This document shows positions 1-42,450 of a stretch of DNA of 64,000 nt, one piece after another; within the stretch, counting starts at the first letter, position 1, and each line of letters opens with the position of its first letter. Under the pieces are notes generated by a model. That model worked only from the letters and a program-made list of their open reading frames with translations, was not told the DNA's origin and did no database searches. The DNA is from a virus. Location of the stretch: positions 27,555 to 91,554 of the IMG/VR virus record IMGVR_UViG_3300045284_000065; one strand, 5' to 3'. The position numbers were made by a program, and so were the translations under genes.

Positions 1-3000
1 AGTGGTGCCGAAGAGGCCAGACGTTCCCTTGGACCTGATGCCGAAGGTGACCGGCGTGTTCTCGGTGACCGCCGCCGCTGTGTATGTCACCCCGGCCTGG
101 GTCGTCTTCAGGACACCGTTGACATACACCTCGTACTGGTAGCCGCTGCCACCAGTAGCCGCCGTCCATGCCACATGGGCATCCGTTGACGACGACGACG
201 CTGCGTTCACCCCGGTGACATCGGCGGGCTTGGTCACGATGCTCACAATGGCTGAGTACGGTCCACTACCCGCTGGTGTGCCACTAGCCGATCCGTTGAC
301 GCCCTTGATGCGGTACCAGTAGGTCGTGTTGGCAGTGAGGCCTGAGTCGGTGTACGTGGTGAGGCCAACAGTGGTGGTCAGAATGGTCGGCCAGGTCGTC
401 CCGTTGGTCGAGCGCTCCAAGGAGATACCGGTCAGCGCTTCTGCTGCTGTCCACGCAGGCCAGGTGAGCACCACGGCGTAGCCGGTGGAAGCGTTGGCTG
501 CGGTCAGCACCTTCGCCGTCGGTGGCTGCAAGAGGATCTGGGTAGTCTCGAACCAGAGGTCACCAACAGCGACGCCGTTCGCCACCGTGGGCTGCTGGTC
601 ACCGATCCAGATATCAGCAGAGACGGCACCGTCAGTGGCGTGTACCTCCAGGATCTCGGGGTGGCTGTGCCCAAGGGCTGCGTAGGCAATGTCACCCTCG
701 GTCGGGGTGAGATACTGGGGGTGCGGGTCTGGCTGGGCAACGTGGAGGGCGACCGCCCCGAGCTTCTCGTAGAGGAGATCGTGGTTGTGGACGATGGGGG
801 CGTAGAGATCATCCGCTTCGTCCTCGGTGAGGTAGAGGCCTGCTGCTTCATCTGCGTCGAGGTACTGGGAGTGAGGATCGTTGTAGACCTGCCCCGCCGC
901 TGCCAGGGTGACCGGCACGGTGTATCCGGGCGGTGCCGTCGTGCCATAGGTGATGCTGATCAGCGTGGGGTCTGTCTCGGTGTCGAGCACCGGCCACTTC
1001 TTGTTGAGGGCAGGGTCAACGTTGGTCAGGTTGATGTAGCTGTTCGGCAGGATGCTGTGCCGTGGGTCCACCGTCAGGGTGAGCACACCGTTCGGGTTCC
1101 ACGACCAGCCGCTCACCGCCCAAGAGTCCTGGATCTGGTGGTTGATGACCTGCTGACGGATCTCGGCCTGGTGGTTGTGGACGAGGGGTGCGTACTTCAC
1201 CACCTCACCGCTGTCGTCGTACTCCTCCAGGAAGTACTGCGGGTGCGGATCAGCAGCGGCGAGGTGATCCAGCATCACGTTCTTGACGTACGTCTCGGAC
1301 GAGAAGGGGATGTACTGGAAGACCATGTCGGCCAACGTCAGGTCAGTGCCCGCATCGTGGGCCGGGTTCGTCGGGTTGAAGAGGGGGTCGATGGCGATGA
1401 TCCAGTCGCCGTTCGCAAGCTCTGCCTGCTTGTCGGTGCCCACGTCGTAACGACCTGACGCATCGCTGTCGATGAAGTCGAGGACACCGCCCGAACTGCA
1501 CACCCAGTACATGCCGTGGCGATAGACGGTGGGGCCAAGCTCCCAGGAGGGGGCGGGCTTGGCGTGCGTGGTCCGGTATGCCTCGGCGTCGTACGTACCG
1601 ACGTAGAGGAGGTCACCGAGCAGTGCCTCCAACCCCGCCTGAGTGGCGAAGAAGGTGGCGTGGTAGGTGTCGAGCATGTCGGCGTTGATGCCGCTGCTAT
1701 CGACGGTATGACCCTGGTTGCCCTGGTGCCAGACCTTGCTCGTCTTGTACTTCAGGTTGGTGGCGTCAAGCGACATCAGGGCCGTGCCACCAGCACCGGC
1801 AAGCCCAGCGACGTTGTCGTGAGCACCACCCTGGTACCAGTAGAAGGCGGTGTTGGCGCGGGAGTACAGCGTGTCCTGTCCTGCACCGCCTGTGCCCTGA
1901 ATGCCGAAGCCATGCGTGGTGCTGGCGAGGAGCAGGTGCTGACCCTGGCGAGAGCCGAAGGTGAGTTGGGCACCCGTCCCGGTGATGTTCAGGCTGCCCG
2001 GAGTGATCGTGCCGCCCGTCAGTTGGAGGTACCCGGCGACGACTGCCGCTGGCGTGACGGCCACGGTGGCGAGCGGTGAGGCAGCGATGGCCTCGGCCAA
2101 GGTCGACAGGCGAGCGACACCGACGACTGCAGTCGTGGCTGCGGCCACGGTCAGTGATCGGTTGGCCGTCAGGTCACCACCTCCTGCGAGTGGTGCCGTC
2201 GTGCTGATGGTGATCGTCTTGTCGGCCTTGCCGTTGGTCAGGGTGCTGAGATCAGTGACGAGGTTGGTGACATCGGCCTCGACGATGTTGGCGAAGGAAC
2301 CGGGGACGCTGGACCCTGCCGACTTGAGGAACTGACCAGTAGTGCCTGGGCTGATCGTCACCTCGGCCGCTGTGACCGTGGCACCGGCAGCGATGATCCC
2401 GTTGGCAATGCTGGTGGTGCTCCGCCCGGTGCCACCGTCAGCCACCGCCACATCCACGCCGCCCGTGGTGTAGAAGTCCGAGTCGGAGTTGGCAATGTTG
2501 AACTGGCTCGCCGTCCCGACGAGGGTGTTACTCGTCAGGTTGATCGTCTTACCGGTGAGCGTCTCGGTACCGGCGAGGGTGGCGAAATCATTATCGGTGA
2601 GGGCGGTGTTGAACTGACTGGTAGTACCAGTCAGCGTGTTGGTGGCGAGGCTGATCGACTTGGCGGTCAGCGTCTCGGTGCCAGCCAAGGTGGCGAAGTC
2701 GTTGTCACTGAGCGCCGTGTTGAACTGAGCGGTGGTGCCCGACAGCGTGTTCGACAGCAGGTTGAGCGTCTTGTTGGTCAGGGTCTGGATGCCAGCCAAC
2801 GTGACGAGCAGCGAGGTGTCAGCGATGCCGTGGACCGTCGTCGTAGCCCCGGTGTGGGCGGTGAAGGAAGCAACCGAGGTGAGGTCGGCGTCAGTCACCG
2901 CCGTGTTGAACTGAGCGAGCGTGCCGCTGACGGTGTTGCTGCCAAGAGCGATCGTCTTGTTGGTCAGCGTCTCGATGCCCGCCAACGTGGCGAAGTCATC

Positions 3001-4503
3001 ACCAACGAGCGCCGTGTTGAACTGCCCCGTCGTCCCAGTGAGGGTGTTGCTCGTCAGATCGATGGTCTTGTTGGTCAGCGTCGCCACCGCTGAGTTCTTG
3101 GCAGCGTCAGATGTGTTGTCGACATTGCCCAGGCCTACGTCACCCTTGACGAGGGCGAGCATGGTCTTCACCGTGGCCGGGGCGAGGTCCTCGGGGTCAC
3201 CGGTACCAGCTGTGTTACGACCCCGGATCGTCTGCGTCGCCATGTCAGCGAGCTTGGCGAGGGTGACCGAGTTGTCCACGATGTCAGCGGTGGTGACCGA
3301 GGACTTGGTGGCGAGCGCACCGAGACCGCTGACATCGAGGTTGGTGATCCCGGCGAAGGCAGCGAGTGCAGCAGCACCACCCGACTTCAGAAACTGACCC
3401 GTAGTCCCTGGCCCGATCGTCTGCTGCGCGCCAGTTGCCGTGGTGCCCGCGGCGATAAGGCCATATGCCGTGGTGCTGGTGGCCCGACCGGTACCACCCT
3501 GAACCACGGTGACCGGGATGCTCAGGCCGAGGGCGGTGAGCAGGTTGGCGACGGTCACGTCGGTCGGTGCTGCCACACCGGCCGTGTTGTTCATCTTCAC
3601 GGTGTTGGCTGGCATCGTCGCCAGGTCGGCGTTGGCGATGGTGCCGTCCGTGATGTCGGCCGAGACGATGGTGCTCTTGAGAGCCAGCGATCCGAGGCCT
3701 GCCACCTTGGCGTTGGGCAGCAGGCTGGCCCCCGTGTACTCACCGAGGTCGAGCACCGCCGTGGCCTCGACACCGACAGCGGTCACGTCGATCCCGTTGC
3801 CGAACACCAGCGAGGTGAAGGCCGTGCCGAGGGAGGTGGTGTCCTCCTTGACGGTGATGCCAGAGATGCCACCACCGGCACCAGGTGGCGAGGCCCAGTT
3901 GCCATCGGCCCGCAGGAAGTTGGAGGCACCACCACCCGAGGCGGGCACCACACCCGACGAGGCTGCGCCGAACGTGCTGACGGCGATGGTCCGGTTCGCT
4001 GAGATGTCACCGCCACCAGTGAGTGGTGCAGTGACGCTGATCGCCGTCGTCTTGTCGGCCTTGGCGTTGAGCGCTGTGCTCGTAGCCCCGGAGATGGGCT
4101 TGCTGGCGTCGGCGGTGTTGTCGACGTTGCCGAGGCCGAGGGTGGTCCTCATCTCAGACGTGGTGGCATCGTCCAGCACCGTCTTGGCCACGGGCGTGAC
4201 CACGGTGGGATCGAGGAGCCATGACGTGCCGGTCCCCGACACGATGATGTCGCCCTTGTCGCCGTCCGTTACCCCAGTGCCGCCGTTCGTCCCGCCACCA
4301 CCGCTCTCGCCGTGCCACACGGGGAACGCTGGGTCACCAGCGCGGAAGGTGACCCACCCCATGCCGACGCTGGTCGGCATGCCACCGACGAAGTCGGTGA
4401 CGGTGACCGTGGCCTCGCCATAGACCTGAGGGATCTGAGCGGTCAGCGAGACCGTGTCGAGCTTGACCGCCTTCGCACGGTAGAGACCTGGGAAGGTCGC
4501 CAT
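1..4503 (-). CDS. Baseplate spike (gp5/gpV-like OB-fold) fused to a long tail fibre with FN3 domains; C-terminus truncated by the window edge (at least 1501 aa)
   Basis: ATG at 4503. Segments translated by hand are open and the track reports no closed ORF in this frame, so it appears open to position 1. N-terminus MATFPGLYRAKAVKLDTVSLTAQIPQVYG...GMGWVTFRAGDPAFPVWHG matches the spike OB-fold pattern. Fibre motifs LGLGNVDNT(A/S)DA, KVWHQGNQG...INADMLD and DPHPQY/HxH follow, then FN3-like LTANTTYWYRIKGVN. Confidence 0.85.
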   Translation of the reverse strand, partial: MATFPGLYRAKAVKLDTVSLTAQIPQVYGEATVTVTDFVGGMPTSVGMGWVTFRAGDPAFPVWHGESGGGGTNGGTGVTDGDKGDIIVSGTGTSWLLDPTVVTPVAKTVLDDATTSEMRTTLGLGNVDNTADASKPISGATSTALNAKADKTTAISVTAPLTGGGDISANRTIAVSTFGAASSGVVPASGGGASNFLRADGNWASPPGAGGGISGITVKEDTTSLGTAFTSLVFGNGIDVTAVGVEATAVLDLGEYTGASLLPNAKVAGLGSLALKSTIVSADITDGTIANADLATMPANTVKMNNTAGVAAPTDVTVANLLTALGLSIPVTVVQGGTGRATSTTAYGLIAAGTTATGAQQTIGPGTTGQFLKSGGAAALAAFAGITNLDVSGLGALATKSSVTTADIVDNSVTLAKLADMATQTIRGRNTAGTGDPEDLAPATVKTMLALVKGDVGLGNVDNTSDAAKNSAVATLTNKTIDLTSNTLTGTTGQFNTALVGDDFATLAGIETLTNKTIALGSNTVSGTLAQFNTAVTDADLTSVASFTAHTGATTTVHGIADTSLLVTLAGIQTLTNKTLNLLSNTLSGTTAQFNTALSDNDFATLAGTETLTAKSISLATNTLTGTTSQFNTALTDNDFATLAGTETLTGKTINLTSNTLVGTASQFNIANSDSDFYTTGGVDVAVADGGTGRSTTSIANGIIAAGATVTAAEVTISPGTTGQFLKSAGSSVPGSFANIVEADVTNLVTDLSTLTNGKADKTITISTTAPLAGGGDLTANRSLTVAAATTAVVGVARLSTLAEAIAASPLATVAVTPAAVVAGYLQLTGGTITPGSLNITGTGAQLTFGSRQGQHLLLASTTHGFGIQGTGGAGQDTLYSRANTAFYWYQGGAHDNVAGLAGAGGTALMSLDATNLKYKTSKVWHQGNQGHTVDSSGINADMLDTYHATFFATQAGLEALLGDLLYVGTYDAEAYRTTHAKPAPSWELGPTVYRHGMYWVCSSGGVLDFIDSDASGRYDVGTDKQAELANGDWIIAIDPLFNPTNPAHDAGTDLTLADMVFQYIPFSSETYVKNVMLDHLAAADPHPQYFLEEYDDSGEVVKYAPLVHNHQAEIRQQVINHQIQDSWAVSGWSWNPNGVLTLTVDPRHSILPNSYINLTNVDPALNKKWPVLDTETDPTLISITYGTTAPPGYTVPVTLAAAGQVYNDPHSQYLDADEAAGLYLTEDEADDLYAPIVHNHDLLYEKLGAVALHVAQPDPHPQYLTPTEGDIAYAALGHSHPEILEVHATDGAVSADIWIGDQQPTVANGVAVGDLWFETTQILLQPPTAKVLTAANASTGYAVVLTWPAWTAAEALTGISLERSTNGTTWPTILTTTVGLTTYTDSGLTANTTYWYRIKGVNGSASGTPAGSGPYSAIVSIVTKPADVTGVNAASSSSTDAHVAWTAATGGSGYQYEVYVNGVLKTTQAGVTYTAAAVTENTPVTFGIRSKGTSGLFGTT
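2480..3090 (-). repeat. Five 37-aa (111-nt) fibre repeats, consensus TLAGxETLTNKTIxLxSNTLxGTxxQFNTALxDxDF
   Basis: The anchor 'aactg' (QF) recurs at 2501, 2612, 2723, 2909 and 3020: 111-nt spacing with one 186-nt gap. Confidence 0.9.
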
Positions 4504-4504: not shown

Positions 4505-4912
4505 TCACCGCATGAAGAGGCGGAACGTCTGCGCCGAGATCTCCCCGCCGTCGTCACCGGGCACGTTGTCGAACCCAATGGCGCAGCCGAGGTCGACACC
4601 ACGCACTGCGACGTAGCCCCTGGCGATAGCGATGGCCTTGCACGACTGAGCCACGGCACCAGCACCGATGGCCCGGATGGTGGGCATCTTGAGGTCGTTG
4701 AAGATGTAGCCCTGGATGGCGAAGGCGAGCGACTGCGGTGTGGTCGTGCCCTTGACCATGATCAGACCCTCAGTCTCCTCGTCAGGGTCGAGGCGCGAGA
4801 ACATCACGCGCTCGGCTGGGCCTGTCTCGGAGTGGGGTCGACGGCGACGGTGATTCGGGGGGGCCACTGCTGGCGTGACCAGGTTCCAGCGATCCAGGAC
4901 TGGATCATCCAC
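4505..4912 (-). CDS. spoVS: SpoVS (stage V sporulation protein S / Alba-like) family protein
   Basis: IMVKGTTTPQSLAFAI...IRAIGAGAVAQSCKAIAIARGYVAVRGVDLGCAIGF matches the SpoVS signature AIGAGAxNQAxKAxAIARGxVAPxGxDL. A GAGGAG RBS lies before the GTG. Confidence 0.88.
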   Translation of the reverse strand: MDDPVLDRWNLVTPAVAPPNHRRRRPHSETGPAERVMFSRLDPDEETEGLIMVKGTTTPQSLAFAIQGYIFNDLKMPTIRAIGAGAVAQSCKAIAIARGYVAVRGVDLGCAIGFDNVPGDDGGEISAQTFRLFMR

Positions 4913-4953: not shown

Positions 4954-5475
4954 TCAGTCGGCCCCGATCAGGGTGGGCTTCTTCGTGCGCGGCACACGGT
5001 TCTCGCTGATCCAGTAGGCCGTCATCAGGCAGGCCTCGGCGCGGCCATCATGCTTGACCATCTTGAAGCTCTCGGACCACTCGGGCCAGCGCTCGGTCGC
5101 ACGCTGACGCGAGAGGGCCTTGTCCTGGTTCAGGTGCATCTTGGTCTTCCAATGCCCCGCTGGCATGTGGACGATCGGGATGTCGAGAGCAGCGAGGACA
5201 CCGAGGATCTTGCCGTAGCCGACGCCGTAGGTGAACACCCCGGCCACGCCCTGCTTGGGCATCGAGTGGGCCTGCTCGACCACCGCTGTGTGGACCGGTC
5301 CATATCCCTGTATCAAGCGGGTGAGCATGTGAGCGTTCACCTCCTTGCCGATGCAGGGCATGTCCTCCAGGTCAGAGATGCTGGCGTCCTGTAACCGGAG
5401 GAACGCCAGCGCCCCCTTCTGACCGGGGTCGATGCCCAGGATGATGACGGCGTTGCGACCCACGCTGGGACTCAT
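4954..5475 (-). CDS. RuvC-like Holliday junction resolvase
   Basis: ILGIDPGQKGA, VVEQ, GVFTYGVGYG and HDGRAEA motifs; ATGA overlap with the upstream gene. Confidence 0.85.
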   Translation of the reverse strand: MSPSVGRNAVIILGIDPGQKGALAFLRLQDASISDLEDMPCIGKEVNAHMLTRLIQGYGPVHTAVVEQAHSMPKQGVAGVFTYGVGYGKILGVLAALDIPIVHMPAGHWKTKMHLNQDKALSRQRATERWPEWSESFKMVKHDGRAEACLMTAYWISENRVPRTKKPTLIGAD

Positions 5476-5963: not shown

Positions 5964-6870
5964 GGTTCTCCTCCAGGTCCCAACAGGTGCTCCGGTAGAC
6001 GCATGAGGCACAGACCTTGTCGCCGGGACGGGTAGCCCATATCGGCCTATCCGGTGCGATCCCTGCTCGTACCCCTTGAGCTACATCCTTCGCCATCTCC
6101 AGTACAGGAGCGATGAATGACTTATTGTAGCTCACCACGAACTCCTTGGTCGCCTGGGTGAACTTGCTCTCGTACACGAAGATGATCTGCTCGTACGCAG
6201 GCCAGGCCATCCACAGGTACAGCTGACCCTGACGCATGTGGGAGCCGAAGGGATGTGATATCGAGAACCAGATGTCCTCGGCCGACTTGCCGTCGAGGTA
6301 CTGCTGGTAGAGGCGGGGTGCCTCGAAGCGCAGGGTGCCCAGGCCGATGGACTTGATCTCCACCAGCGCCCGCTCGGGGAGGTGGACGGCGGCGTCAGCG
6401 TGGCCCTCCACCATGAAGTTGTTGTGTCGGAGGGGGTACTCCTTGTACTCCAGCCGCTCGCTCTGACAGAACTGGCAGGCCTGAGGAGACATGTCGTACC
6501 ACTGGTGGCCGCACTCCCTGCAGTGCCACATGCCGACGAGGATGCCCATCTCCCAGAACCAGGTCTGCCACTTGGCGTGGATGGCGTGGCCCTCGGAGAA
6601 GACGTTGCTCATCCTGAAGCTGGGGTTGGCCTTGGACACCCGGCCGATCGGTGCCCCGGTGATGGAGTAGTAGTCGTGCCGCCCGCACCAGTCGGTCTTC
6701 GCCATGTCGGAGGGGTGCATGTGCTTGGCCGAGTGGTCGTCGGGACGCCCACCCGTCGCCGTCTTCATGACGTGGCGCTCCACCTGGGGCAGCAGCAGGC
6801 CACTGGTGGACTTGAACGTGCCCTTCAGTCGCTGGAGTGCGGAGTCACGGAGAGGGCGGGGCAAAGTCAC
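5875..6870 (-). CDS. Cas4-like PD-(D/E)XK exonuclease with an inserted Zn ribbon
   Basis: HPSD..WCGR, EGHAIH, GHAD, EIKS, QGQLY and C-terminal CxxCxxxxxC, plus an extra CRECG..CQFC. Confidence 0.82.
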   Translation of the reverse strand: MTLPRPLRDSALQRLKGTFKSTSGLLLPQVERHVMKTATGGRPDDHSAKHMHPSDMAKTDWCGRHDYYSITGAPIGRVSKANPSFRMSNVFSEGHAIHAKWQTWFWEMGILVGMWHCRECGHQWYDMSPQACQFCQSERLEYKEYPLRHNNFMVEGHADAAVHLPERALVEIKSIGLGTLRFEAPRLYQQYLDGKSAEDIWFSISHPFGSHMRQGQLYLWMAWPAYEQIIFVYESKFTQATKEFVVSYNKSFIAPVLEMAKDVAQGVRAGIAPDRPIWATRPGDKVCASCVYRSTCWDLEENHEIEAPTPTPRVQRAKPGKRRASLRTPAV

Positions 6871-7138
6871 CCTCCTCGATCAGGACCAGGCGGCGCTTGT
6901 TCTTGCCCAGGGTGATGTGCAGTGCTGGGATCCGACCGTCCATCAGGGCGTGCTTGCGGAGGTCTTCCCACACGTCCTCCTTGATCGTGAACTGTCGGTT
7001 GCCGGTGGTCTTCTGCTCCCACAAGACGCCCGACTCGCGCACGTCGTTGCGCTTGGACCATCCGCTGCCGCTGCCTGGCTGACGGACACCGCCACGGCGC
7101 TTGGCCAGGCGGTGCTCCTCCTTCTCCCACTCCTTCAC
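6845..7138 (-). CDS. Hjc-type (PD-(D/E)XK) resolvase/endonuclease
   Basis: E.RLAK..GG.RQPGSGS.W..ND...EQKTT pattern typical of phage Hjc-like nucleases; GTG start overlaps the upstream stop. Confidence 0.72.
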   Translation of the reverse strand: MKEWEKEEHRLAKRRGGVRQPGSGSGWSKRNDVRESGVLWEQKTTGNRQFTIKEDVWEDLRKHALMDGRIPALHITLGKNKRRLVLIEEGDFAPPSP

Positions 7139-7371
7139 TCGTCTCCCGTGTCCACATCCAGCCAGACGATCTCTGTCTGCCCACCGTGACCGTGGACGTG
7201 TTCGATCGACTCCATGCCACGGTCGTAGTGGACGACAGACGAGGGCCACTGGCTGATCCAGTGGAGGGTGGCGACACCATCGGAGTACACGACCCCCTCG
7301 GCCACGATGCCGGTCCCCGAGACTCCGGTCGGGTCAACGTCACGACGGAGTACGAACCTACGGTGTGTCAT
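7135..7371 (-). CDS. Small conserved phage hypothetical protein
   Basis: FVLRRDVDPTGVSGTGIVAEGV..SDG...HGHGG motif, which I recognise from actinophage small proteins. Confidence 0.7.
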   Translation of the reverse strand: MTHRRFVLRRDVDPTGVSGTGIVAEGVVYSDGVATLHWISQWPSSVVHYDRGMESIEHVHGHGGQTEIVWLDVDTGDE

Positions 7372-31900: not shown

Positions 31901-32090
31901 AGGCGTGGGTGCTGTTCCACCCGCAGATCGGTCGGTTCAGGCTGCTCAGAGCACTGAAGCGGACCCGCACGGTGAACTGGAGCGAAGTGGGTGGCGACGC
32001 CAGGTTGGCGCGATCGATCCTCGCGTAGTTGCCGACCTGACCTGGGAAGTACAGGTAGCCGGGAGCGTCGACAGGGAAGGCGAGAGGCAT
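25950..32090 (-). CDS. 2046-aa baseplate wedge (P2 gpI-like) protein with six LamG/ConA-like N-terminal domains
   Basis: Six GYxxFPGxxGNY-initiated repeats; HLWNALPPYYR..DLKRWLQIFGYQFD...YRGRGTVGG wedge motif; follows the baseplate J gene. Confidence 0.8.
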   Translation of the reverse strand: MPLAFPVDAPGYLYFPGQVGNYARIDRANLASPPTSLQFTVRVRFSALSSLNRPICGWNSTHAYLSIQSTNRPVVGVLNTSVAPIGGVAANADIPGIAIDKDIWIRGQVVISSAVCTYWYSFDNEIDPLKATWIQLGTPVTGANAGTTPLLTQSGQVLIGNNTTSGLSPFVGRVYYMSEADSGVEAIRFDGNQDLAGVVPDATSFAPSVGPVNTVVTVVRTPKAIGQGYATFPGTTGNYMETPDATALDVITPMYIILRMRQRDTVPNHFSVPVGKGLVYRVVTGPYGLLFSWGPNDSSYFRATSRTTIDANEQWVWYSIFYDPTGVVNHKVWYSLTDSLTPPAAASWTASFSVTVGASAIGNSTNPLRIGSGWTSGSVPTGPSIDGDIGYVSIRTGTGALPVEGTEVFGLNADNFINDAQGNAVTSTSTALTAATGQAITVYRNPAPKGTGYILFPGTLGNDLVIADAATLEITGPTSFVFGILPRSWLPYTAQTIISKWAAAGQRGYAVMMDINGCLQFLYSIDGTVFYTLTCTQPVPASTSRQVVRIDTDIVGGVRVVDFWLSPDSGVTWAPLGTRQSGLTGTVFNSTSPLVIGAQYDGRLYGLSIYGSTQSTSLEMLRLASEHIPANPQAGTLALQGGTATVRRDYVPVDFGYIVLPGTESNFLTVPNETAFQDNTSFVVEARLIANDWTPPRRNRAIMTKSGSAGLVGWSFLLSSRGTLLFYWSSNGNNYDNVVESPALGLQAQAAKRVAVSFEAGTSNYVRFWTSDDNRTWTRLSETPTSGPMFASIATLVIGNFFDGAISNVSFRTSFDPGGVPIQNTEALLIDQTCLAIDPAATSFKAVTGQTVTIVKTQTAIETSPNPGYLYFPGTLGNYATVPAGGFPAIAGSMTIDIRLAADRWTGQLVVDSEDPPTSHSEGPAQTLFGRWSAGNNHSYLVRLSPNGELLFTWTNSSGSIEYTSTTRPIAGPVNGEYRYLRLAVDMTVPNQQSLRLFETLDYGDSWVAIGQPIVTNYPTSGLVQGNGPFWIGATEGDTSWFGGRIANLRIYNDATNIEMFRMDQESLRVPTATTVFNEQWGKTITLHQSSTPTISGYVSFDGVSGEYCRATVPNLSTVTSDFTLMVRVNFTGKLLTTEQVLVQKWNTTPASKVLNKQLTTNVATITTKDPHKLAVGNAVIVTGVGAPFDGTVTITTVPTTTTFTYAKINANVASTASTGDVTPLGRSFSLRRKGTEFSFHASSDGMTDDINAVLADVWDDDNVDWGWLAITTNYSTTDATVTFFTAPEALTPVGTPLVPLPTDWVAQGDPLVFENVTALYMDTEQVTFGGAEDGTLSMRGWLSNVSITNGIGANNVPGGTEKFGWNINSFAGIAADSGAFTAFTGENVVLEPVGASRTMKVQPSAPGPTSDLEPSLPGPTTTILPSPQGPTTTLVRGEDGPSTVLTPAPVGPVTELSPPSLNRPWWPGTETDDTSKWWDQPAFTVQRVIDTTVSGGDYVRGSTNARTQQTAIRYPTTLPGWTPAGVGKGTLYSQPINYDTIEIEWNVPEQFAISWETPSTLADITWSEVTIIRAAMGYPSTVNDGQAIMRQTKAQLYPTGYRYDATSHEILTPNQFDPHSPETSAATGLTPGRWYYYALFFRVGFDWVRSAIHCCLLPRNHHHAEHLWNALPPYYRYLDDNMRGGANDGDLKRWLQIFGYQFDLTREYAESSLDMYHTDFTPLSLLQRIGENFGVKYEPGLGDYSYRALVGTIGYLYRGRGTVGGMKSLVNAAAKCDCDVTSSPNVLLLPDDSEFMNGTGNWAGIHDLTYPKPTGSGIPASPLSYDRIGFSSGTYGYNPGPTSGKGMMHVYTGPADALADLLITCGDGKQTQIAPDPPLEILPFDVGTPCKPGDVYTFTISCASEFGVGSMQAFLFFFGDGGRPDDFISLAAALGAVTPTVGNWAPTSVSGTVPANGAYVVPAIAVVSRAAGSNTSRSPYVHFSGASLYYVGNSSQVTSDVFVKTLTLTGPAAGHPGGPTDTGAEKIGPLDPGVFDPFFIGEEQE
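27715..27880 (-). repeat. Five 11-aa (33-nt) xxxGPtTtLxP repeats
   Basis: GP codons at 27732, 27765, 27798, 27831 and 27864. Confidence 0.9.
28797..28808. promoter_or_regulatory. ATATC-NN-GATAT palindrome (perfect copy)
   Basis: cATATCCCGATATg inside the 2046-aa gene. Confidence 0.6.
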
Positions 32091-34189
32091 CAGGTGTTCG
32101 CCAAGCCCCCGTCAGCGGTCACCCACAGGCCGTCGTGGATGAACTCGTCGTCGGTGTAGTAGGGCGGGTAGCTGGCCGACGACGCCGACTCGTCGTACTT
32201 GACCGGGTCGATGCGTGGGATGTGCAGGTCGTCCACGATGATGTCCCCCACCTCGCCCACCGTGACCGGCGTCGGGGAGTAGCGCACGAAGGTGAAGTCG
32301 ATCGAGGTGCTGGCGGCAGGCGTGGTGTTGGGCGACGACTTGCGGGCGATGACCACGTCCCAGTCGGCGTACCCCGGCGTTGACGGGACGCCGGTACCAC
32401 CGTGGAGAGTGGCGTTGGAGCGCACGACGTAGTCCCACCACGATCCGTTGGCCGGGTTGCTCAACACGATGTGGTCGCCCACGTCGACACGGCCCAGGTC
32501 CGCCGTGCGGTTGTCACTCCCGGCAGAGGGCGACGTGGTATCCCGATATGAAATGGCGATGTGCAGGAAGTCGGGGTCGGTCGAGGTCGTGTCGTCGTAG
32601 AGCCGGTAGAACGTGGCGGTCGGCTCGGGCGGGCTGGCCCCGGCCTCGAACTTCCACTGGCTGGTGAACATCGTCTCCACCGGCTGGGTGGGAGGCCCGA
32701 GCACCAGAGGGTCGACCACCACGGTGCCGCTCTCGGAGGGCGGGCGTGAGGTGGTCAGCCAGTTGACCTCGGCCCAGTCCACGCCCTGCACAGTGAGCAC
32801 GGCTCGGTAGACATCACCGAGGGTGATGCGGGTGCCGAAGTCGACCATGTCGAAGTCGAGCAGCGTGTGGAGCGTGGAGTCGACCTTGTTGCGAACGTCG
32901 AGACGGTTGAACACCTCGGCCACCTGGATGTTGATCCTGATGAAGACGTTGGTCCACAGGTCCATGCAGTGCAGCGGGCCAGCCACGACGGTGGAGCCGA
33001 TGAGGATCTTGTCCTGCATCGTCTGCTCGACAGAGGTACACAGCCGCTGCATCTGAGCATCGGTGCATTCGTCAGCGCTGGAGGACAGGGTCGGAGCGAC
33101 CCACACCTTGACGGCGGTGTACACCGTGCCATAGGCGACGCTCTTGGCCACTCCTGGCGTCTGCATCGCCAGGTCGGCGTAGTCGTTGAGGGTGACAGCG
33201 CGGCTGCGGATGCGGGCACCGGCCCGGGGGACCGAGAAGCGCATCGATGCCACCGACTCGGCATCGGCTCCACCAGAGGGAGAAGCCGGGTTGGACACCG
33301 TCACCTGCCATGCCTCGAAGAAGCCAGCAATCGGGACGATGGTGGAGATCATCTTGGCCGGGACATCATTGGCCGCTGCGCCGACGCCGTAGCGGTAGGT
33401 GGCGAACAGCTGGGCGTTAGCAGACGGGATCCGGCCCGACGTGTTGTCCCCGAAGCAGATGTGGGTGAAGCCCTGGTCGTCCAGGTAGGTGGTGAACACC
33501 GACTGGGTCGGGCGCGCCGTTGCCAGATCGGTGGTGTAGGTCCACACGACCTGCTGGTAGCCCTCGCTCGACACGATGCGGAGCGACCCGGCGATGATGC
33601 CCTTCTGCGGCAGGGTGAACTCGGTGTTGGCGATACCGAAGGCCACGCCGATCGGCGTGTCCCGCACTGTCACGCCCTCCTGGGCAAGCAGCGTGAACGG
33701 ATCGTCACCAGGGTGGAACGTCACTGCGTTGACAGTCTCGAAGACGATGGTGTCCCCGGCGTTATCCGAAGAGGAGTAGCACCGGGTGCCTGCTGGAATG
33801 GTGAGCGGGTCCTTGGGGTCGGTGGGATCGGGGGTGTAGGGGGTGATGGTCAGGTCCACCGATGCCGCCGCCTGTCCAGTCGGCTTGTAGCCGAGCATGT
33901 CGGCGATGTAGTACACCGACTGGGGCCGAATGGCAGTGGCGAGGAATGACTCACTGGCCGTGCGGTCGATGTAGAAGTTGAGGATGTCACCGAGGTAGGC
34001 GAACAGTTCCAGGATCACCGTGCCGAAGTCGGAGGACTCCCCGGCCGTCGTCCACTCGGGCATGATCGTGTTGGCGAGACGGACCAACTCGGCCCGGAGC
34101 GACGTGAAGTCACGACTGGTGTAGTCGAGGATCAGCTTGTTCTTGAGGCCTTCGTCGTCCAGTGAGACGAGCACGCCGATGTCAGACAC
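32090..34189 (-). CDS. Baseplate J / wedge protein
   Basis: DYTSRDFTSLR..PEWT..SDFG, FGDNTSGRIP, SGGADAES, RAVTLNDY. Confidence 0.92.
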   Translation of the reverse strand: MSDIGVLVSLDDEGLKNKLILDYTSRDFTSLRAELVRLANTIMPEWTTAGESSDFGTVILELFAYLGDILNFYIDRTASESFLATAIRPQSVYYIADMLGYKPTGQAAASVDLTITPYTPDPTDPKDPLTIPAGTRCYSSSDNAGDTIVFETVNAVTFHPGDDPFTLLAQEGVTVRDTPIGVAFGIANTEFTLPQKGIIAGSLRIVSSEGYQQVVWTYTTDLATARPTQSVFTTYLDDQGFTHICFGDNTSGRIPSANAQLFATYRYGVGAAANDVPAKMISTIVPIAGFFEAWQVTVSNPASPSGGADAESVASMRFSVPRAGARIRSRAVTLNDYADLAMQTPGVAKSVAYGTVYTAVKVWVAPTLSSSADECTDAQMQRLCTSVEQTMQDKILIGSTVVAGPLHCMDLWTNVFIRINIQVAEVFNRLDVRNKVDSTLHTLLDFDMVDFGTRITLGDVYRAVLTVQGVDWAEVNWLTTSRPPSESGTVVVDPLVLGPPTQPVETMFTSQWKFEAGASPPEPTATFYRLYDDTTSTDPDFLHIAISYRDTTSPSAGSDNRTADLGRVDVGDHIVLSNPANGSWWDYVVRSNATLHGGTGVPSTPGYADWDVVIARKSSPNTTPAASTSIDFTFVRYSPTPVTVGEVGDIIVDDLHIPRIDPVKYDESASSASYPPYYTDDEFIHDGLWVTADGGLANT

Positions 34190-34197: not shown

Positions 34198-34659
34198 CTA
34201 GAGGGGTGCGGGCGGAACGGCGTCGTGCAGCGCCTCGATGTGACCCGGCAGGGTCCGACCGAAGAACTCCGACGACGGCAGCGGAATGGTCAACGTGCTC
34301 TCGCCGCCCACCGACGAGGACTGGTAGCTGATCTTCACGTCCACTTCAGCTTCGGGCACACCCGAGGTTTCGATGATGACGTAGCGGATGGAGGCGCGAA
34401 GCAGGACGCGCCCATCGGGACCGGTGTTGGCATTGGCCAAGCGCGTGCGGACGATGGAGGCGGCGTCCTGTCGCTCCAGTTCGTCACGGGGATCGAACAG
34501 CGCCGACTGCAGGTCGCACCCGTAGTGGGGCCGGAAGACACGCTCGCCCTGGTTGGTCATCAGGGCGTCGATCACCTGGCCGCGCACGATCTCGTCGTAG
34601 TTGGTGGTGGTGCCGACCTTGCCGCCCTGCACGCGGAAGGGGACCTGGAGCGCTCTCAT
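34198..34659 (-). CDS. GPW/gp25-family baseplate protein
   Basis: LMTNQGERVFRPHYGCDL. Confidence 0.9.
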   Translation of the reverse strand: MRALQVPFRVQGGKVGTTTNYDEIVRGQVIDALMTNQGERVFRPHYGCDLQSALFDPRDELERQDAASIVRTRLANANTGPDGRVLLRASIRYVIIETSGVPEAEVDVKISYQSSSVGGESTLTIPLPSSEFFGRTLPGHIEALHDAVPPAPL

Positions 34660-35855
34660 ACCAGGCCTCGCAGTCGGGGGTTGTTCCAGGAGGAGACCCA
34701 GCGCTTGTTCTCGTCCAGGCTCAACGAGGGGCGTCCCTGGGGCGGGTCCTGCCGCTCCCAGAAGGGCTTGTAGGGCACCTCGGTGTAGCCAGGAGTGGCC
34801 TCTTTGGTCGGCCGGGTGAGGAACAGCATCGTCTGGTACTGCTGATCGTTGGCGTTGTGACCAACCGCGCGGACGAACCACTTGCCGTCGCCCTCGGGCT
34901 TGAAGTACTTGCTCGACGCCGTGACCACATCGACGCATGACCCCGGCCAGATGTCGGCATCGCCCCATATGCGCGCCACACCCGACTCGGCCCACCCATC
35001 TGCCCTCGTCTGCCAGGCATCGACGTAGACCTGGGCCTCCACCTGGTCGCGGATCAGCTGGGTCGACTCGAAGACGAACCCGGCGAAGTCACCGTCCTGG
35101 GTGATCGTCTGAGCCTCGTTGCCAGTGGTGAAGAAGCCGAACTTGATGCCGAGGTTGTTCTTGAGCATCTCGGAGGTGGCCTGGCTGGAGAAGTCGATCA
35201 GGGTGCGGTCGGTGGTCCCGACGCCGATGCTGCTCTGGCCCGACACCAGGCTGGTGTAGGAACCAGTCTCTCGGTAGGTCTTCAGTGGGTCGATGACCTG
35301 GACCACGCCATAGCGGGTGTACACCGACCAGCCGATCCGCTTGGCGAGGTCAGTGACCATCGTCCAGTCGCTCTCGTCGGTCTGAGCGAGTGCCTCCCAT
35401 ATGTGGGTATGCGATTGCCCTCCCGACCCCAGGCCGCTGTTGTTGACCAGATCACTGATCACCCCGGTCGCCGTGCGGTTGACGAAGAAGCGCGGCTTGC
35501 CCTCGAACATCACCTTGGAGGGACCGAGGATGCTCATCGTGAACGACAACTGGCTGGTCGCCTTCTGCTCGTTGGTGATCTCGGCCACGTAGCCCTGGAA
35601 CAACTCCGTGCGCGGCGGTGCCCCGTAGTAGAAGGAGATGGGCTGGTCGATGATGCCATCAGTCGTCGTCAGCGTGGTGGAGATCACCGACAGCGTCGCC
35701 CCATCGTGCTGGCCCTCGGACACGATCATCTGCAGTTCCTTGGGCACCACGTCGAACGCCGCCCCCTTCAGCTGGGGGCTGAAGACCGGGACCCGGCCGC
35801 GCATCGACCGACCACCGGAGCCTCCCGCAGAGGGGTTGAGGTCAGTCATCGTCAT
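34656..35855 (-). CDS. Baseplate hub (gpD/gp27-like)
   Basis: FQGYV, QTDESDWTMVTDLAKRIG, GKWFVRAVGH. Confidence 0.8.
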   Translation of the reverse strand: MTMTDLNPSAGGSGGRSMRGRVPVFSPQLKGAAFDVVPKELQMIVSEGQHDGATLSVISTTLTTTDGIIDQPISFYYGAPPRTELFQGYVAEITNEQKATSQLSFTMSILGPSKVMFEGKPRFFVNRTATGVISDLVNNSGLGSGGQSHTHIWEALAQTDESDWTMVTDLAKRIGWSVYTRYGVVQVIDPLKTYRETGSYTSLVSGQSSIGVGTTDRTLIDFSSQATSEMLKNNLGIKFGFFTTGNEAQTITQDGDFAGFVFESTQLIRDQVEAQVYVDAWQTRADGWAESGVARIWGDADIWPGSCVDVVTASSKYFKPEGDGKWFVRAVGHNANDQQYQTMLFLTRPTKEATPGYTEVPYKPFWERQDPPQGRPSLSLDENKRWVSSWNNPRLRGLV

Positions 35856-36199
35856 CAGGTCACCGGCAACCTGAGGTATGCGCCCGGCATGATGTCCAGC
35901 GGGTACCAGATCTGCGGGTTCATCTCGGCCAGCACATGCCACTGGTTGGGGTCATCGAGGATCTTGAACCCGAGGAAGGGCAGGTTCTCCGTCTCCTTGG
36001 CGTAGTAGGCCGTTGTGGCCCCCGGGATATCTGGCTCGGTCGTGACGCGGTACAGCGCCTCGCGCAGATCGATGCGGATATGCAGCGATGTCTTACCCAC
36101 ATCCCCGGACAGCAACGGGTAGCCCCGAGTGCTGTAGGAGTGGGAGAAGGTGGCCAATCGGTCAGCGACCTCGTAGCGGGAACCTGGGGGAACAGCCAT
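35855..36199 (-). CDS. LysM-like / tail X baseplate protein
   Basis: ILDDPNQWHVLAEMNPQIWYPLDIMPGAYLRLP. Confidence 0.8.
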   Translation of the reverse strand: MAVPPGSRYEVADRLATFSHSYSTRGYPLLSGDVGKTSLHIRIDLREALYRVTTEPDIPGATTAYYAKETENLPFLGFKILDDPNQWHVLAEMNPQIWYPLDIMPGAYLRLPVT

Positions 36200-37749
36200 C
36201 AGTGCAACGGGGGGAGAGGAGTGTCGGGAGTGGTGTCGGTGAAGTGGCTGCCGTTCGTGGTGTACACCCGAACGCAGTAGTTGTACTGCAGGGAGTTGCC
36301 CGAGTAGGTGGAGATGGTGACATCCTGATCGTGCGAAGCGGCATGGAGGACCGAGAAGGAGTCAGTGGTCTTCGTCCAGAGGTAGGCCACATGGTTGGTC
36401 CCGGGTCGATCGGGGTGGTTATAGCGCATGAGGAGGTCGCCCCTGATGCCGCTGGTGAGGACCGACTTGAAGATGTTCTGAGAGTTGAGTTCTCCATGCG
36501 GCTGACCGAAGCCCCACAGGCGCTCGACGAAGTTGTTGCCTTGGAAGCCGCCGATCATCGACGCCACCGAGGGAATCCCTCCACCCTTGTTCGCCCACTT
36601 GGGCCAGCCCAGGTTGGAGGCGATGGTGTCGCCGTCAGGCTCCAGGGAGACCAACCCGGCCCACACGTAGCTGGAACAGTCGGCCATCGCCCACAGGTTG
36701 CCCCGGTTGCCCTCGGCACCGACGTAGATCGTGTGGGCAGCGTCGGAGTGTGACTTGGCGTTCTCCGCTGCCCTGGCACCGATCGTGCCGTCACGGCTGA
36801 GAGGGGTGCCATCAGCGTTCGCGAAGGTGCCCTCGCTGTTCACCCCGAGGGAGGGGCGACTGATGTCCTCGTTGTTGGTCGGCCAACTCATCTCCTCGAA
36901 GGAGAGGTTGAACACCGGGGCCGCTGGGATGTTGTAGTGGATGGTGCGATCGACGGTGGATGTCGGAGCGGTGAAGCCGGTGATGTCGCGCACCGGACCC
37001 ATGTAGATGACCCGCATCGTCAGGGCGACGCGCATGCGCGTCGGTGTCATCTCATGGGTGAACTTCTCGTAGACGATCTGGCTGTTGATCGGCCGACCCT
37101 GCACCGTGATGTCCTTGGAGAACACGACGGTGATGTCCCGGGGGTTGACCATCATCACGCCCGAGTCGGGGATGGTGTTGTTGGCCCCCGTCCCTCCCGG
37201 TATCACATTGCGGACCACCAGGTCGAAGTAGTCCAGGTCATCGAGGACGCCGCGGTTGCCCGGGACCATCGCCTCGGTCTGCCGATCGAAGAACAACTCG
37301 AAACTGAACTCCAGGATGCTGGGCGGGGCCACCAGGTTGCCCGAGTCGAAGATCGTGTTGAAGGGGTCCAGCGCCCCCTGGTCGAGGTAGTTCACGTACT
37401 GCCGAGTGATCGTCGTCGGGTTGTACATGAAGTAGAGGCGGCACGTCGATGGCAGGTCGGTGGCGTTGACCTGGGCACGGCGGATGTAGCCCCGCTTGAT
37501 GTTGGCGGGGGCCGGTCCACCGATCGCCCCCTTCTGGAACGGGATGTTGTGAGCACCGGCCTCCCAGGAGGCGAACGGCGGGTTGGTGCGCCACCTGGTC
37601 GTGCCCGCACCCGGGACGAAGGTGCCGAAGTCGAGCCACTCATAGCCCGACGTGGTCTGCTGCCGACCCTGGGCGTCGACCACCGTCTGCGGGGTGACGT
37701 ACGTCGGGGTACGCGAACTGGTCGTCGGGACGTAGGTGTTGACAGCCAT
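36199..37749 (-). CDS. Tail tube initiator-like protein with a C-terminal NlpC/P60-type domain
   Basis: FMYNPTTI...FELFFDR; ADCSSYV...GDLL...HVA...HAA. Confidence 0.75.
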   Translation of the reverse strand: MAVNTYVPTTSSRTPTYVTPQTVVDAQGRQQTTSGYEWLDFGTFVPGAGTTRWRTNPPFASWEAGAHNIPFQKGAIGGPAPANIKRGYIRRAQVNATDLPSTCRLYFMYNPTTITRQYVNYLDQGALDPFNTIFDSGNLVAPPSILEFSFELFFDRQTEAMVPGNRGVLDDLDYFDLVVRNVIPGGTGANNTIPDSGVMMVNPRDITVVFSKDITVQGRPINSQIVYEKFTHEMTPTRMRVALTMRVIYMGPVRDITGFTAPTSTVDRTIHYNIPAAPVFNLSFEEMSWPTNNEDISRPSLGVNSEGTFANADGTPLSRDGTIGARAAENAKSHSDAAHTIYVGAEGNRGNLWAMADCSSYVWAGLVSLEPDGDTIASNLGWPKWANKGGGIPSVASMIGGFQGNNFVERLWGFGQPHGELNSQNIFKSVLTSGIRGDLLMRYNHPDRPGTNHVAYLWTKTTDSFSVLHAASHDQDVTISTYSGNSLQYNYCVRVYTTNGSHFTDTTPDTPLPPLH

Positions 37750-40886: not shown

Positions 40887-41035
40887 GACTCCTCGTCTTC
40901 TTCCACTCGATCATGGCCATCCAATACCTACGCTGCCTGCCTGTCATGCTGCGGATCTCGGAGAGAGACCACCCTGGGTAGTTCTGAGCGATCACTTCGT
41001 AGTTGAGGTAGTTCGATGTCTCACTGGAGGCGAAA
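40879..41035 (-). CDS. Tail chaperone C-terminal extension, probably reached by frameshift
   Basis: NYEVIAQNYPGWSLSEIRSMTGRQRRYW lies in the +1 frame relative to the chaperone, with no convincing independent start. Confidence 0.6.
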
Positions 41036-41841: not shown

Positions 41842-42450
41842 TCAGGTCCCGACGAGGACCGGGGTGGAGACCAGATTGAGGGCGTTGTTGAGGCTCGCCG
41901 CCTGGTCGTGGCCGAAGTACACCTCGAAGCCTTCGTGGTGGACCTGCATCTGGTGGACGAGGATGCCGTTGTTCTGAGCATCGAGGCCACCGAAGCCAAC
42001 GCTGGCCGTCCAGCAGTTGTAGAACTGGAAGGCGATCACCGCGCCGTCGTAGGACCGCGTCGACATCGACGCCGCCCCGTGAGTCACCGGGTGGCCCATC
42101 ACTCGCACGGTGAGGGTGTAGCGGTACTGGGTGATCTGACCGTTGGAGAAGTCCAACGTGCCTGCCCCGTGCTGGACGGCGAACATCTTCTTGGCCAAGT
42201 TCCACATCTGTGGCTTGTCGAAGAAGACGCCCGACGACATGGTGAGGGGCTGGAAGTTGGTCTGCCCCGGGAGCTTGTGGGGCGTGGTGTTGTAGCCCCC
42301 CTCCCGGTAGGCAGTCATGTCGGTGTCCATGGCGATGCCTTCGACGGACATGAAGCCCATCTGGCCGAAGACCATGCCGTCAACCCCGACTGCATCGACC
42401 AGGAACTTGAAGTTCCTGACCGGATCGGAACGCTCGAATGTGGTTGCCAC
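41842..42450 (-). CDS. Tail tube protein (T4 gp19-like)
   Basis: DPVRNFKF, GFMSVEG, YREGG..HKLPGQT..LTMSSG. Confidence 0.92.
   Translation of the reverse strand: MATTFERSDPVRNFKFLVDAVGVDGMVFGQMGFMSVEGIAMDTDMTAYREGGYNTTPHKLPGQTNFQPLTMSSGVFFDKPQMWNLAKKMFAVQHGAGTLDFSNGQITQYRYTLTVRVMGHPVTHGAASMSTRSYDGAVIAFQFYNCWTASVGFGGLDAQNNGILVHQMQVHHEGFEVYFGHDQAASLNNALNLVSTPVLVGT

Follow-up and report, generated by a model that had tools for sequence, protein, structure and literature searches.

A spike-type OB domain heads a giant fibre protein encoded away from the baseplate operon of an uncultured soil myovirus

Introduction

A rigid axial spike is generally considered necessary for contractile tails, and recognition of the host is ascribed to fibres at the periphery. 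The central spikes P2 gpV, Mu gp45 and R2 pyocin PA0616, all members of the Phage_base_V family (PF04717), carry a five-stranded OB domain at the N-terminus and are present in one copy per genome. In such spikes this domain is a beta-barrel of some 65-90 residues, a triple-stranded beta-helix and a metal-binding apex come directly after it, and the trimer docks beneath the hub trimer. Their genes lie between those for the hub and the wedge protein gp25. Separation of spike and hub genes nevertheless has precedent, as gene 5 and gene 27 of phage T4 reside in different clusters.

Long fibres at the centre of the tail tip are known from siphophages. The central fibre proteins (CFPs) of the mycobacterial phages Claus (gp20), Corndog (gp61), Mysterious (gp30) and Bxb1 are trimeric, long and flexible, and each is anchored by an N-terminal segment of 64-103 residues that sits beneath or inside the hub trimer (PMC13252515). 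These proteins are associated with polyglycine regions and bind glycans, and they have been proposed to gate the tail tube and to be released at ejection (PMC13252515). Here we describe a locus from an uncultured, contractile-tailed soil phage, in which a spike-type OB domain is joined to a giant fibre.

Results

A giant open reading frame directly follows spoVS

The window, by which we mean the whole 64,000 nt stretch of DNA analysed, opens with a very large reading frame on the minus strand (Table 1). A single C separates its ATG from the TGA stop codon of the spoVS-like gene (4507-4505), and the genes upstream form a recombination and replication operon that encodes a DNA polymerase, SSB, RecA/UvsX, two Holliday-junction resolvases and a Cas4-like exonuclease. 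Both observations agree with the first-pass annotation, which had placed the frame 1 nt downstream of spoVS at the end of the recombination operon. Within the window the frame covers 1,501 aa. It continues for a further 1,097 nt past the left edge (C1:26457-27554), which gives a full protein of 1,866 aa (L003:13460-19057) on the 91.5-kb contig. The protein is thus giant, as had been claimed, but the earlier figure of more than 1400 aa is too low. The frame was also said to be missing from the ORF track; it runs off the window and so appears only if open-ended ORFs are requested, which probably accounts for the omission. The motifs GLYRAK, IPQVYG and WVTFRAGDPAFPVW are all found in its translation. 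Downstream of the giant ORF lie genes for a 400-aa fibre-like protein and for an endolysin with GH25 and PG_binding_1 domains. A scan for promoters and terminators returned no promoters, and terminators at chance level.

Table 1. Features of the giant ORF and of the baseplate region, in window coordinates
Feature	Position	Strand	Basis or remarks
Giant OB-fibre ORF	1-4503, running past left edge	-	ATG at 4503-4501
Start of FN3 array	1-546	-	Residues 1320-1501; more FN3 past window edge
Predicted CBM96-like C-terminal domain	Residues 1640-1866, past window edge	-	AF2 model, fold matches
Distal shaft with GMYWVC-type conserved region	544-1716	-	Residues 930-1320
Fibre shaft	1714-4263	-	Residues 81-930
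Glycine-rich linker (GESGGGGTNGGTG...) from OB head to fibre	4264-4308	-	Residues 66-80, from translation
Spike-type OB-fold head, divergent compact Phage_base_V-like	4309-4503	-	Residues 1-65 of giant ORF
spoVS-like gene	4505-4912	-	Pfam SpoVS 7.5e-15; phrog_35646
Baseplate J-like wedge	32090-34189	-	Baseplate_J 7.6e-5; phrog_219 3.8e-36
gp25-like wedge	34198-34658	-	GPW_gp25 6.6e-7
Baseplate hub (gpD/gp27-like), presumed docking partner of OB head	34656-35855	-	Phage_GPD 7.2e-5, below Pfam cut-off
114-aa protein, possibly LysM-like	35855-36199	-	Upstream of hub
516-aa protein, possible centrepiece	36199-37749	-	Upstream of hub
Tape measure with SLT lysozyme domain	37749-40886	-	SLT_3 9.4e-11

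The N-terminal residues form a spike-type OB domain

As the first-pass annotation had proposed from motifs, residues 1-65 are a spike-type OB domain; they belong, as a compact form, to the superfamily that includes the OB domains of gpV, gp5 and VgrG (Phage_base_V). An AlphaFold (AF2) model of this segment (pLDDT 85.7) contains a short helix and five strands, at residues 8-15, 20-23, 32-35, 47-53 and 61-65. When the model was aligned with 48,161 PDB chains by VIA-align, the best eight matches were all central spikes of phages and contractile injection systems (Z 7.9-6.5), with Mu gp45 (Z 6.1) and P2 gpV (Z 5.9) also matched, and the alignments to Pvc8, Alg8, Afp8, VgrG1 and VgrS fall on the OB part of these proteins. 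These scores are middling (Z below 8), and the generic OB folds IF1 and Rrp44 follow close behind at Z of about 6. In a Foldseek search of the PDB, five of the six best matches bear the titles of contractile-injection-system baseplates or spikes (PVC, AFP, AlgoCIS, PlPVC1 and Anabaena) and the remaining one is a baseplate chain of phage P1. The best matches in BFVD are proteins named 'Gp5/T6SS Vgr OB-fold' and a tail protein of Streptomyces phage BRock (E 8e-5 to 5e-4).

Homology to spikes in canonical positions is provided by profile-profile comparison. A profile of the OB-head family (A1) was aligned by hhalign with a profile of 12 spikes from related baseplate operons (A3), giving a probability of 98.5% and an E-value of 1.8e-15 over 63 columns. 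The A3 spikes are 131-229 aa long, all 12 match PF04717 above the cut-off (best 1e-12), and in related tail modules their genes either separate hub from gp25 or come immediately after J. The A1 profile also matches gp88 of Streptomyces phage GiJojo (95.6%, E 1.2e-8), whose gene is placed between those for hub gp87 and wedge gp89.

Weak matches to PF04717 are given by 8 of 60 A1 family members, and neither PF04717 nor PF18352 matches anywhere in the contig in a Pfam model search, even at E 10. Pfam and PHROGs return nothing for the N-terminus of the giant ORF, with either the whole ORF or residues 1-66 as query. Against PDB sequences, phmmer with the protein and hmmsearch with the family profile yield only FN3 or chance matches (for example lactate dehydrogenase), and a tblastn search of 50,697 cultured phage records with the OB head gives none at E 1e-3 and only noise at E 10.

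A glycine-rich linker joins the OB head to a long modular fibre

Directly after residue 65 the chain enters a glycine-rich linker, which is followed by the shaft. The fibre repeats, DPHPQY/HxH motifs and FN3 domains listed in the first-pass annotation are all present according to a motif map, TRF and Pfam. The shaft carries the duplicated modules NVDNT, APLxGGGD and GGTGR...GQFLKS and five 37-aa repeats (window 2404-3081; TRF period 111 nt). It matches phrog_30593, and its tblastn matches are annotated as tail fibre and minor tail proteins. In the distal shaft, which is conserved in three other proteins (P0099, P0128 and P0153), DPH(P/S)QY occurs at residues 1085, 1209 and 1259. HxH motifs, which bind Fe in the P2, phi92 and Mu spikes (PMC10811340), are confined to residues 1109-1281, where they start at residues 1109 (HNH, window 1171-1179), 1239 (HNH, 781-789) and 1279 (HSH, 661-669).

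The FN3 match of the giant ORF to Pfam is weak (9.5e-4), and its homologues match clearly (1e-10 to 7e-21). The C-terminal domain is predicted to have a CBM96-like carbohydrate-binding fold. Its model (pLDDT 84.3) finds 8wab by Foldseek (E 2e-5), the VIA-align Z-scores are 13.9 for 8wab_B and 12.1 for 7vbo_A with the next match at 8.7, and the Atlas lead for this domain is CBM96.

The OB head belongs to a family of at least 219 clusters at 50% identity, in which the OB domain always starts at residue 1. In nearly all members it is followed by a glycine-rich or collagen-like linker, with matches to the Collagen model of Pfam, and the C-terminal parts across the family include the Phage Tail Collar domain and collagen. 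Related loci were sought with a 10-sequence alignment of this family. A pattern scan of one genome per species (185,579 species) returned no true family member. Two loci from the genome-contig scan were rejected as chance matches, being unrelated proteins that have GWVAFQAGN alone in common.

The baseplate operon has no spike gene

In the baseplate operon, the stop codon of the hub gene and the start codon of the gp25-like gene overlap in ATGA. This junction leaves no room for a spike gene and bears out the earlier reading that hub directly overlaps gp25. Hub homologues hold the same position in relatives, and hub, gp25 and J adjoin without a gap in four relatives too. The operon therefore lacks a spike gene, unlike related tail modules. 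The phage has lost the needle-like spike gene from this operon, and the spike-type OB domain is encoded elsewhere: about 31 kb separate the hub from the start of the giant ORF, close to the 30 kb first estimated, and the distance from OB gene to hub is 25-35 kb in the study contig and five relatives. The OB gene follows spoVS in 13 relatives, and this synteny is kept in loci L004-L016 and L044. The displaced position is conserved across the whole clade.

Other genes of the tail module were considered as hidden spikes. The 516-aa, 114-aa, hub, J and LamG giant proteins each have a counterpart in group B loci that carry a separate spike; for the 516-aa, 114-aa, hub and LamG genes this coexistence rules out such a role. 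Homologues of the tape measure and of the 516-aa and 114-aa proteins stand at matching places in these loci. The one candidate for a PAAR tip, a sub-threshold match (14 bits) inside an unrelated 1,957-aa ORF, was not accepted.

If the OB domain were co-opted as a generic attachment module, the giant ORF could encode a peripheral side fibre, and the tip would be closed by the hub or by the C-terminus of the tape measure. We regard this arrangement as unlikely, though it has some points in its favour. In locus L044 the fibre body is free-standing with a different short N-terminus, so another mounting is possible; the Phage Tail Collar and collagen parts of OB-head proteins are typical receptor-binding modules; and a glycine-rich, presumably flexible linker rather than a rigid needle seems to follow the OB head. 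Opposing these points, the OB domain is the sole one in each genome and has homologues among the proteins whose genes occupy the spike position, the baseplate operon is short of exactly the spike gene when set against related tail modules, and no other candidate for the plug was found.

A second alternative, which we consider very improbable, is that a canonical spike is encoded in the unassembled 21% or so of the genome and that the OB-fibre is an additional paralogue. The study contig is linear, lacks terminal repeats and has a CheckV-type completeness of about 79%, so the argument that there is no other spike leans on complete relatives. The study contig and five relatives (G001-G005) have exactly one spike-type OB domain each, and the search for another spike gene suggested by the first-pass annotation found no second homologue in any of them, including the 118-kb genome G001, which has terminal repeats and is 100% complete. 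Relatives that are 100%, 98% and 93% complete carry their single OB domain at the post-spoVS position. Furthermore, the baseplate operon is contiguous and intact in the study contig.

The giant form is a gene fusion

In locus L044, spoVS is followed by a gene for a 252-aa OB protein and then, with an ATGA overlap, by a separate gene for a 1,689-aa fibre (P0153). This fibre is 72-74% identical to the giant ORF (72% over residues 475-1866). Because the fibre body is a separate gene beside a short OB protein in this relative, comparison of the two loci indicates that the giant form arose when the OB head fused to the neighbouring fibre gene. Further independent giants with OB heads are P0155, P0156, P0158, P0099 and P0128. 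That the fused frame is instead an assembly or sequencing artefact joining these two neighbouring genes has hardly any credibility, even though the study contig is a metagenome assembly and L044 keeps the genes apart, because OB heads are fused to giant fibres in at least five independent contigs, P0156 has the same junction (a G-rich linker and then VTDGxKGDI) with an OB head only about 45% identical, relative G003 has a 2,021-aa open frame, and the giant ORF itself is free of stop codons and holds no remnant of the C-terminal domain of the 252-aa protein.

Discussion

The giant ORF probably encodes a central spike protein that has been rebuilt as a central tail fibre. The evidence suggests that a long fibre, in place of a needle, occupies the centre of the tail tip. 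A piercing role for this protein is unlikely, as the sequence after the OB head points to a flexible linker and not to a beta-helix needle. We infer a central location on the virion, as the first-pass annotation had anticipated; the different expression timing suggested there is more speculative.

A working model can be outlined on this basis. Three OB heads would bind beneath the trimeric gpD-like hub, closing the tip of the tube in the manner of gpV and gp5, and the polyglycine linker would let the three chains leave the axis and assemble into one long, flexible trimeric fibre. First contact with a surface polysaccharide of the host could then be made by the sugar-binding tips of this fibre. 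On contraction, the sheath would push aside or release the OB plug together with the fibre, and the wall might be opened by the SLT lysozyme domain of the tape measure rather than by a needle. The OB-fibre gene lies together with the second fibre gene and the endolysin gene in a host-range and lysis cassette behind the replication genes, in which its C-terminal part is swapped freely, with sizes from 174 to about 2,000 aa across the clade.

A broader and more tentative reading, for which we would claim somewhat less than even chances, extends this to a large and as yet uncultured clade of soil myoviruses. The spike would have been cut down to an OB domain that plugs the hub and is tethered by polyglycine to an exchangeable fibre, which would make the axial site the main place of modular host recognition. 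The gene would have moved to the fibre and lysis cassette, where C-terminal parts of about 100 to 2,000 aa are exchanged and adjoining fibre genes become fused to it or split from it.

In the OB-head family, the docking domain of a spike bears a flexible linker, to which receptor-binding fibres are attached interchangeably. If the proposed role is correct, central fibres of the kind seen in siphophages also serve myoviruses, and the OB head is a simple sequence marker for the host-range determinant in uncultured soil phages. The fusion would then be a natural 'Rosetta stone' that ties a long fibre to the spike, and gene pairs that occur both split and fused are a clean system in which to examine how baseplates mount fibres.

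Comparison with known systems

No spike-fibre fusion is described for a myovirus in the literature searched, in which journal coverage is incomplete. The nearest cultured example is provided by Streptomyces phages, namely GiJojo gp88 and the BRock tail protein, and the tail module is homologous to that of BRock-like phages (sheath 30-33% identical). With the spikes of the gpV type the giant ORF has in common the five-stranded N-terminal OB domain and its signature, G-x-Y-R-A...PQV-x-G...W-V-x-F-x-x-G-x-x-x-x-P-V-W. It differs from them in its shorter OB domain, which has ceased to match the Pfam model, in that a polyglycine linker and a fibre of about 1,800 aa seem to take the place of a beta-helix and apex directly after this domain, and in the position of its gene, about 30 kb from the hub gene instead of beside it.

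The resemblance to the siphophage CFPs is functional only. The tails of those phages are non-contractile and the CFP anchors are helical, or consist of a helix and short strands, rather than having an OB fold; at E 1e-3, tblastn with the OB head detected no similarity to CFPs or to any other protein of cultured phages. T4 gp5 likewise docks its OB domain under the hub trimer, but it has a lysozyme domain, a rigid beta-helix needle and a PAAR cap, whereas in the present phage lysozyme is on the tape measure and there is no convincing PAAR protein.

The first-pass annotation had likened the protein to an evolved VgrG. This holds as an analogy, since evolved VgrG and spikes of the Pvc8/Afp8 type also combine a spike OB domain with a large C-terminal extension, but it does not hold in detail, as the giant ORF has no gp27 module and no effector. 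In evolved VgrG a gp27-like module is fused to the spike, and here the hub is a separate gene. Moreover, the extension of evolved VgrG is an effector in a secretion system, whereas here it would be a receptor-binding fibre in a virion.

Gene order and borders of the giant ORF

The contig is a linear IMG/VR virus sequence of 91,554 bp with a GC content of ~64%, is estimated to be ~79% complete and carries nearly all of its genes on the minus strand. Its bases 27555-91554 make up the window. The first-pass annotation had placed spoVS and a giant ORF at the end of the recombination operon, and the operon genes that we identified agree with this arrangement. The spoVS stop codon (TGA at 4507-4505, minus strand) is separated by a single C from the ATG of the giant ORF at 4503. 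The ORF exits the window and, when followed on the contig, ends at L003:13460, giving a total of 1,866 aa. Its translation contains every motif quoted at the outset and shows repeats of fibre type, FN3 domains, and DPH(P/S)QY and HxH motifs in three copies each. The reported lack of a spike gene between the hub gene and gp25 is equally evident, as the hub stop and gp25 start codons share an ATGA that leaves no room for one.

Genes of the contig in order of transcription, and spike genes of related loci. Positions are those of the window unless a locus is named (L003, present contig; L021, L028 and L033, IMG/VR loci with a related tail module and a separate spike gene)
Feature	Position	Strand	Placement
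Portal, capsid, other head and neck genes			First in direction of transcription
Sheath	42460-44868		After head/neck genes
Tube	41842-42450		
T4_baseplate-family gene	41021-41821		
Tape measure, 1,045 aa, with SLT lysozyme domain	37749-40886	minus	
516-aa protein, then 114-aa protein			Between tape measure and hub
Hub	34656-35855		
gp25	34198-34658		
J	32090-34189		
2,046-aa LamG-type protein and 491-aa protein			After J
Replication/recombination genes, ~20 kb (DNA polymerase, SSB, RecA/UvsX, two Holliday-junction resolvases, Cas4-like exonuclease, SpoVS)			Between 491-aa gene and giant ORF
Giant ORF		minus	After SpoVS
400-aa fibre-like protein	L003:12254-13453	minus	Next after giant ORF, just left of window
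236-aa protein	L003:11541-12251	minus	After 400-aa protein
Small genes and GH25 plus PG_binding_1 endolysin			Downstream of 236-aa protein
Separate spike gene	L021 9665-10060; L033 9380-10069		Between hub and gp25
Separate spike gene	L028 9803-10336		Directly after J

Two distinct families of Holliday-junction resolvase (phrog_1770 and phrog_2002; 4954-5475 and 6845-7249, both minus strand) occur in the one recombination operon, accompanied by a Cas4-like exonuclease, RecA/UvsX and a phage-encoded SpoVS homologue. A 1,957-aa ORF (50167-56040, minus strand) in the head/neck section of the structural module matches zero Pfam families. Just upstream of the sheath gene, a 612-aa protein (46225-48063, minus strand) has a weak C-terminal match (E 0.0034) to Peptidase_S74, an intramolecular chaperone of fibres, and is possibly another fibre or whisker.

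The N-terminal domain and its relation to phage spikes

Direct profile searches with the N-terminus gave no spike match in Pfam, PHROGs, PF04717 (at E 10) or PDB sequences. When 1.84 billion cluster representatives were searched exhaustively with residues 1-74 (phmmer), 219 proteins of 67 to 1,635 aa matched with E-values of at most 1e-3, and 109 of these reached 1e-10 or better. The match begins at residue 1-8 in nearly all of these proteins, which fixes the start codon of the giant ORF. The search likewise reveals an N-terminal module that is conserved and attached to highly variable bodies.

An AlphaFold model of this head, based on an alignment of 60 family proteins, has five strands and one short helix (pLDDT 85.7). 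Its best Foldseek matches in the PDB are baseplate or spike chains (PVC, AFP, AlgoCIS, PlPVC1, the Anabaena CIS and a phage P1 baseplate chain; E 0.02-0.08, TM 0.63-0.73), and among viral models it matches 'Gp5/T6SS Vgr OB-fold' proteins and a tail protein of Streptomyces phage BRock (E 8e-5 to 5e-4). With VIA-align, an independent all-against-all aligner, the best eight of 48,161 chains scored Z 7.9-6.5; six are titled spikes or injection-system baseplates, and the remaining pair, which comes from the baseplates of cyanophage A-1(L) and P1, is taken to be spike chains. Mu gp45 (Z 6.1), P2 gpV (5.9) and the phiKZ spike (5.3) come next, and in every spike match the alignment covers the OB part. 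The spikes outscore generic OB folds (IF1, Rrp44 and ligase OB domains) by only a little, and therefore the model by itself indicates an OB fold nearest to the spike class.

Scanning IMG/VR for the pattern of a 10-sequence sub-alignment gave loci of two kinds. One kind carries a tail module homologous to the present one (sheath 42-46% identical), with counterparts of the tube, T4_baseplate gene, tape measure, 114-aa gene, hub, J and LamG protein. Every such locus encodes a 131-229-aa protein with the OB-head signature, and Phage_base_V (PF04717) matches 12 of 12 non-redundant proteins above its cut-off (best 1e-12). The family N-domain profile aligns with the profile of these proteins over 63 columns, the whole domain, at 98.5% probability (E 1.8e-15), and 8 of the 60 family members touch PF04717 directly. 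Among cultured phages, the BRock-like Streptomyces myoviruses have the nearest tail modules (sheath 30-33% identical). The spike gene of P2- and Mu-type tails usually lies between hub and gp25, and the order hub-spike-wedge-J is confirmed by gp87, gp88, gp89 and gp90 of Streptomyces phage GiJojo, whose gp88 matches the family at 95.6% (E 1.2e-8). The alignments with PF04717 spikes and gp88 show the head of the giant ORF to be a shortened Phage_base_V domain. The likeness to spikes first proposed for this region is thus common to Foldseek, VIA-align and profile-profile alignment.

Spike genes of related tail modules are highly variable (L028:9803-10336; L033:9380-10069). One type is OB-only, with 131-140 aa terminating right behind the OB domain. 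The L033 spike has an inserted domain of ~140 aa, and is probably the alignment member that matches BclA_C/TNF-like families. A third type combines the OB domain with a coiled coil and a terminal HTH, its gene lying after J and not before gp25. The L021 hub (L021:8200-9668) is split into genes for 287-aa and 202-aa proteins.

Origin of the giant ORF

Over its shaft the protein is similar to sequences annotated as tail fibres or minor tail proteins. Ten giants were retrieved with the C-terminal 227 residues as query; three of them have the same OB head, two a different OB-like N-terminus and two a short unrelated one. One of the last, P0153, was located on an IMG/VR contig (locus L044). There the gene after spoVS encodes a 252-aa OB-headed protein, and the separate gene of the 1,689-aa fibre P0153 overlaps its stop codon in an ATGA. 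This fibre shares 72% identity with residues 475-1866 and 74% with residues 155-262 of the giant ORF, which is therefore a fusion of the spike head with the neighbouring fibre gene. That such a fibre exists without an OB head would also suit a peripheral fibre that has co-opted the OB domain as its anchor, a less probable reading that has to be set beside the single spike homologue described below. The same fusion junction occurs in the independent and divergent giant P0156, which argues against the unlikely possibility of an assembly artefact.

In this clade the OB-headed protein is between 174 aa and ~2,020 aa long, and tip domains elsewhere in the family include collagen and Phage Tail Collar, among others. 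The model of the C-terminal domain (pLDDT 84.3) matches the chondroitin-sulfate- and alginate-binding modules 8wab and 7vbo (Z 13.9 and 12.1; next 8.7; Foldseek E 2e-5), in agreement with a language-model lead to CBM96, and the tip as modelled has a sugar-binding fold. P0161 and P0162 (2,018-2,022 aa) share a CBM-like C-terminal domain but have a different OB-like N-terminus (...KIYRATVLN...VPDVGQQVLITGDD...), so that fusion of a spike head to a giant fibre may have arisen more than once. Relatives carry the same downstream cassette. The motif GVPVGGTANQVLSKIDATNYNTQW of its 400-aa protein recurs in the 174-aa OB protein P0003 and N-terminally in the free fibre P0153, and may represent a common docking or collar module.

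A single spike homologue

No other spike gene was detected in the contig and five relatives, where the profiles find the OB head only. A six-frame scan of the whole contig with three profiles (the separate spikes, the family and PF04717) found no second place beyond the giant-ORF head, and in each relative the spike profile matches exactly one place, always the post-spoVS gene, 25-35 kb from the hub. PF04717 itself gave nothing convincing in three relatives. A PAAR search yielded a single sub-threshold PAAR_motif match (14 bits, E 0.004; 52540-52710) inside the unrelated 1,957-aa ORF. It is unlikely that the fifth of the genome missing from the contig contains a second spike; the relatives include one of 118 kb with terminal repeats that is 100% complete, and completeness is 98% and 93% in two more.

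Four relatives have the 516-aa gene, 114-aa gene, hub, gp25 and J in one contiguous run without a gap. All other baseplate genes here have counterparts in the loci with a separate spike, and therefore the spike is the one gene 'missing' from the operon. The spike gene has been lost from the baseplate operon, and the OB head is its sole homologue.

Proposed function and comparison with known systems

The comparisons above establish that the head and the OB domain of spikes are homologous and that the genome has a single copy. We propose that an OB trimer would dock beneath the hub trimer and close the tube, with the polyglycine linker freeing one long axial fibre that would bind surface polysaccharide. 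Contraction would displace plug and fibre. The tape measure has an SLT/lysozyme-like domain at residues 849-940, so that the wall would be cut by the tape measure and not by the spike.

The spike OB domain, fibre and CBM are each already known as components, and in T4 the spike gene is far from the hub gene. Three features appear to be new, namely a large family whose spike has shrunk to a docking domain joined by a tether to exchangeable fibres, the conserved transfer of the OB-head gene into a fibre/lysis cassette, and the giant fused form. With tblastn the OB head had no match among cultured phage records at E 1e-3, a pattern scan of one genome for each of 185,579 species found no true family member, and the literature searched yielded no description of a spike-fibre fusion in a myovirus.

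HxH motifs serve as iron ligands in the spikes of P2, phi92 and Mu, according to work cited in PMC10811340. Those of the giant ORF lie >1,000 residues away from the head. The closest functional parallel is the central fibre protein of mycobacterial siphophages, a flexible trimer anchored at the hub by its first 64-103 residues and linked with polyglycine regions. This protein binds glycans, and its release at ejection has been proposed (PMC13252515). Its anchor, in contrast to the OB head, is helical, and the two are unrelated in sequence.
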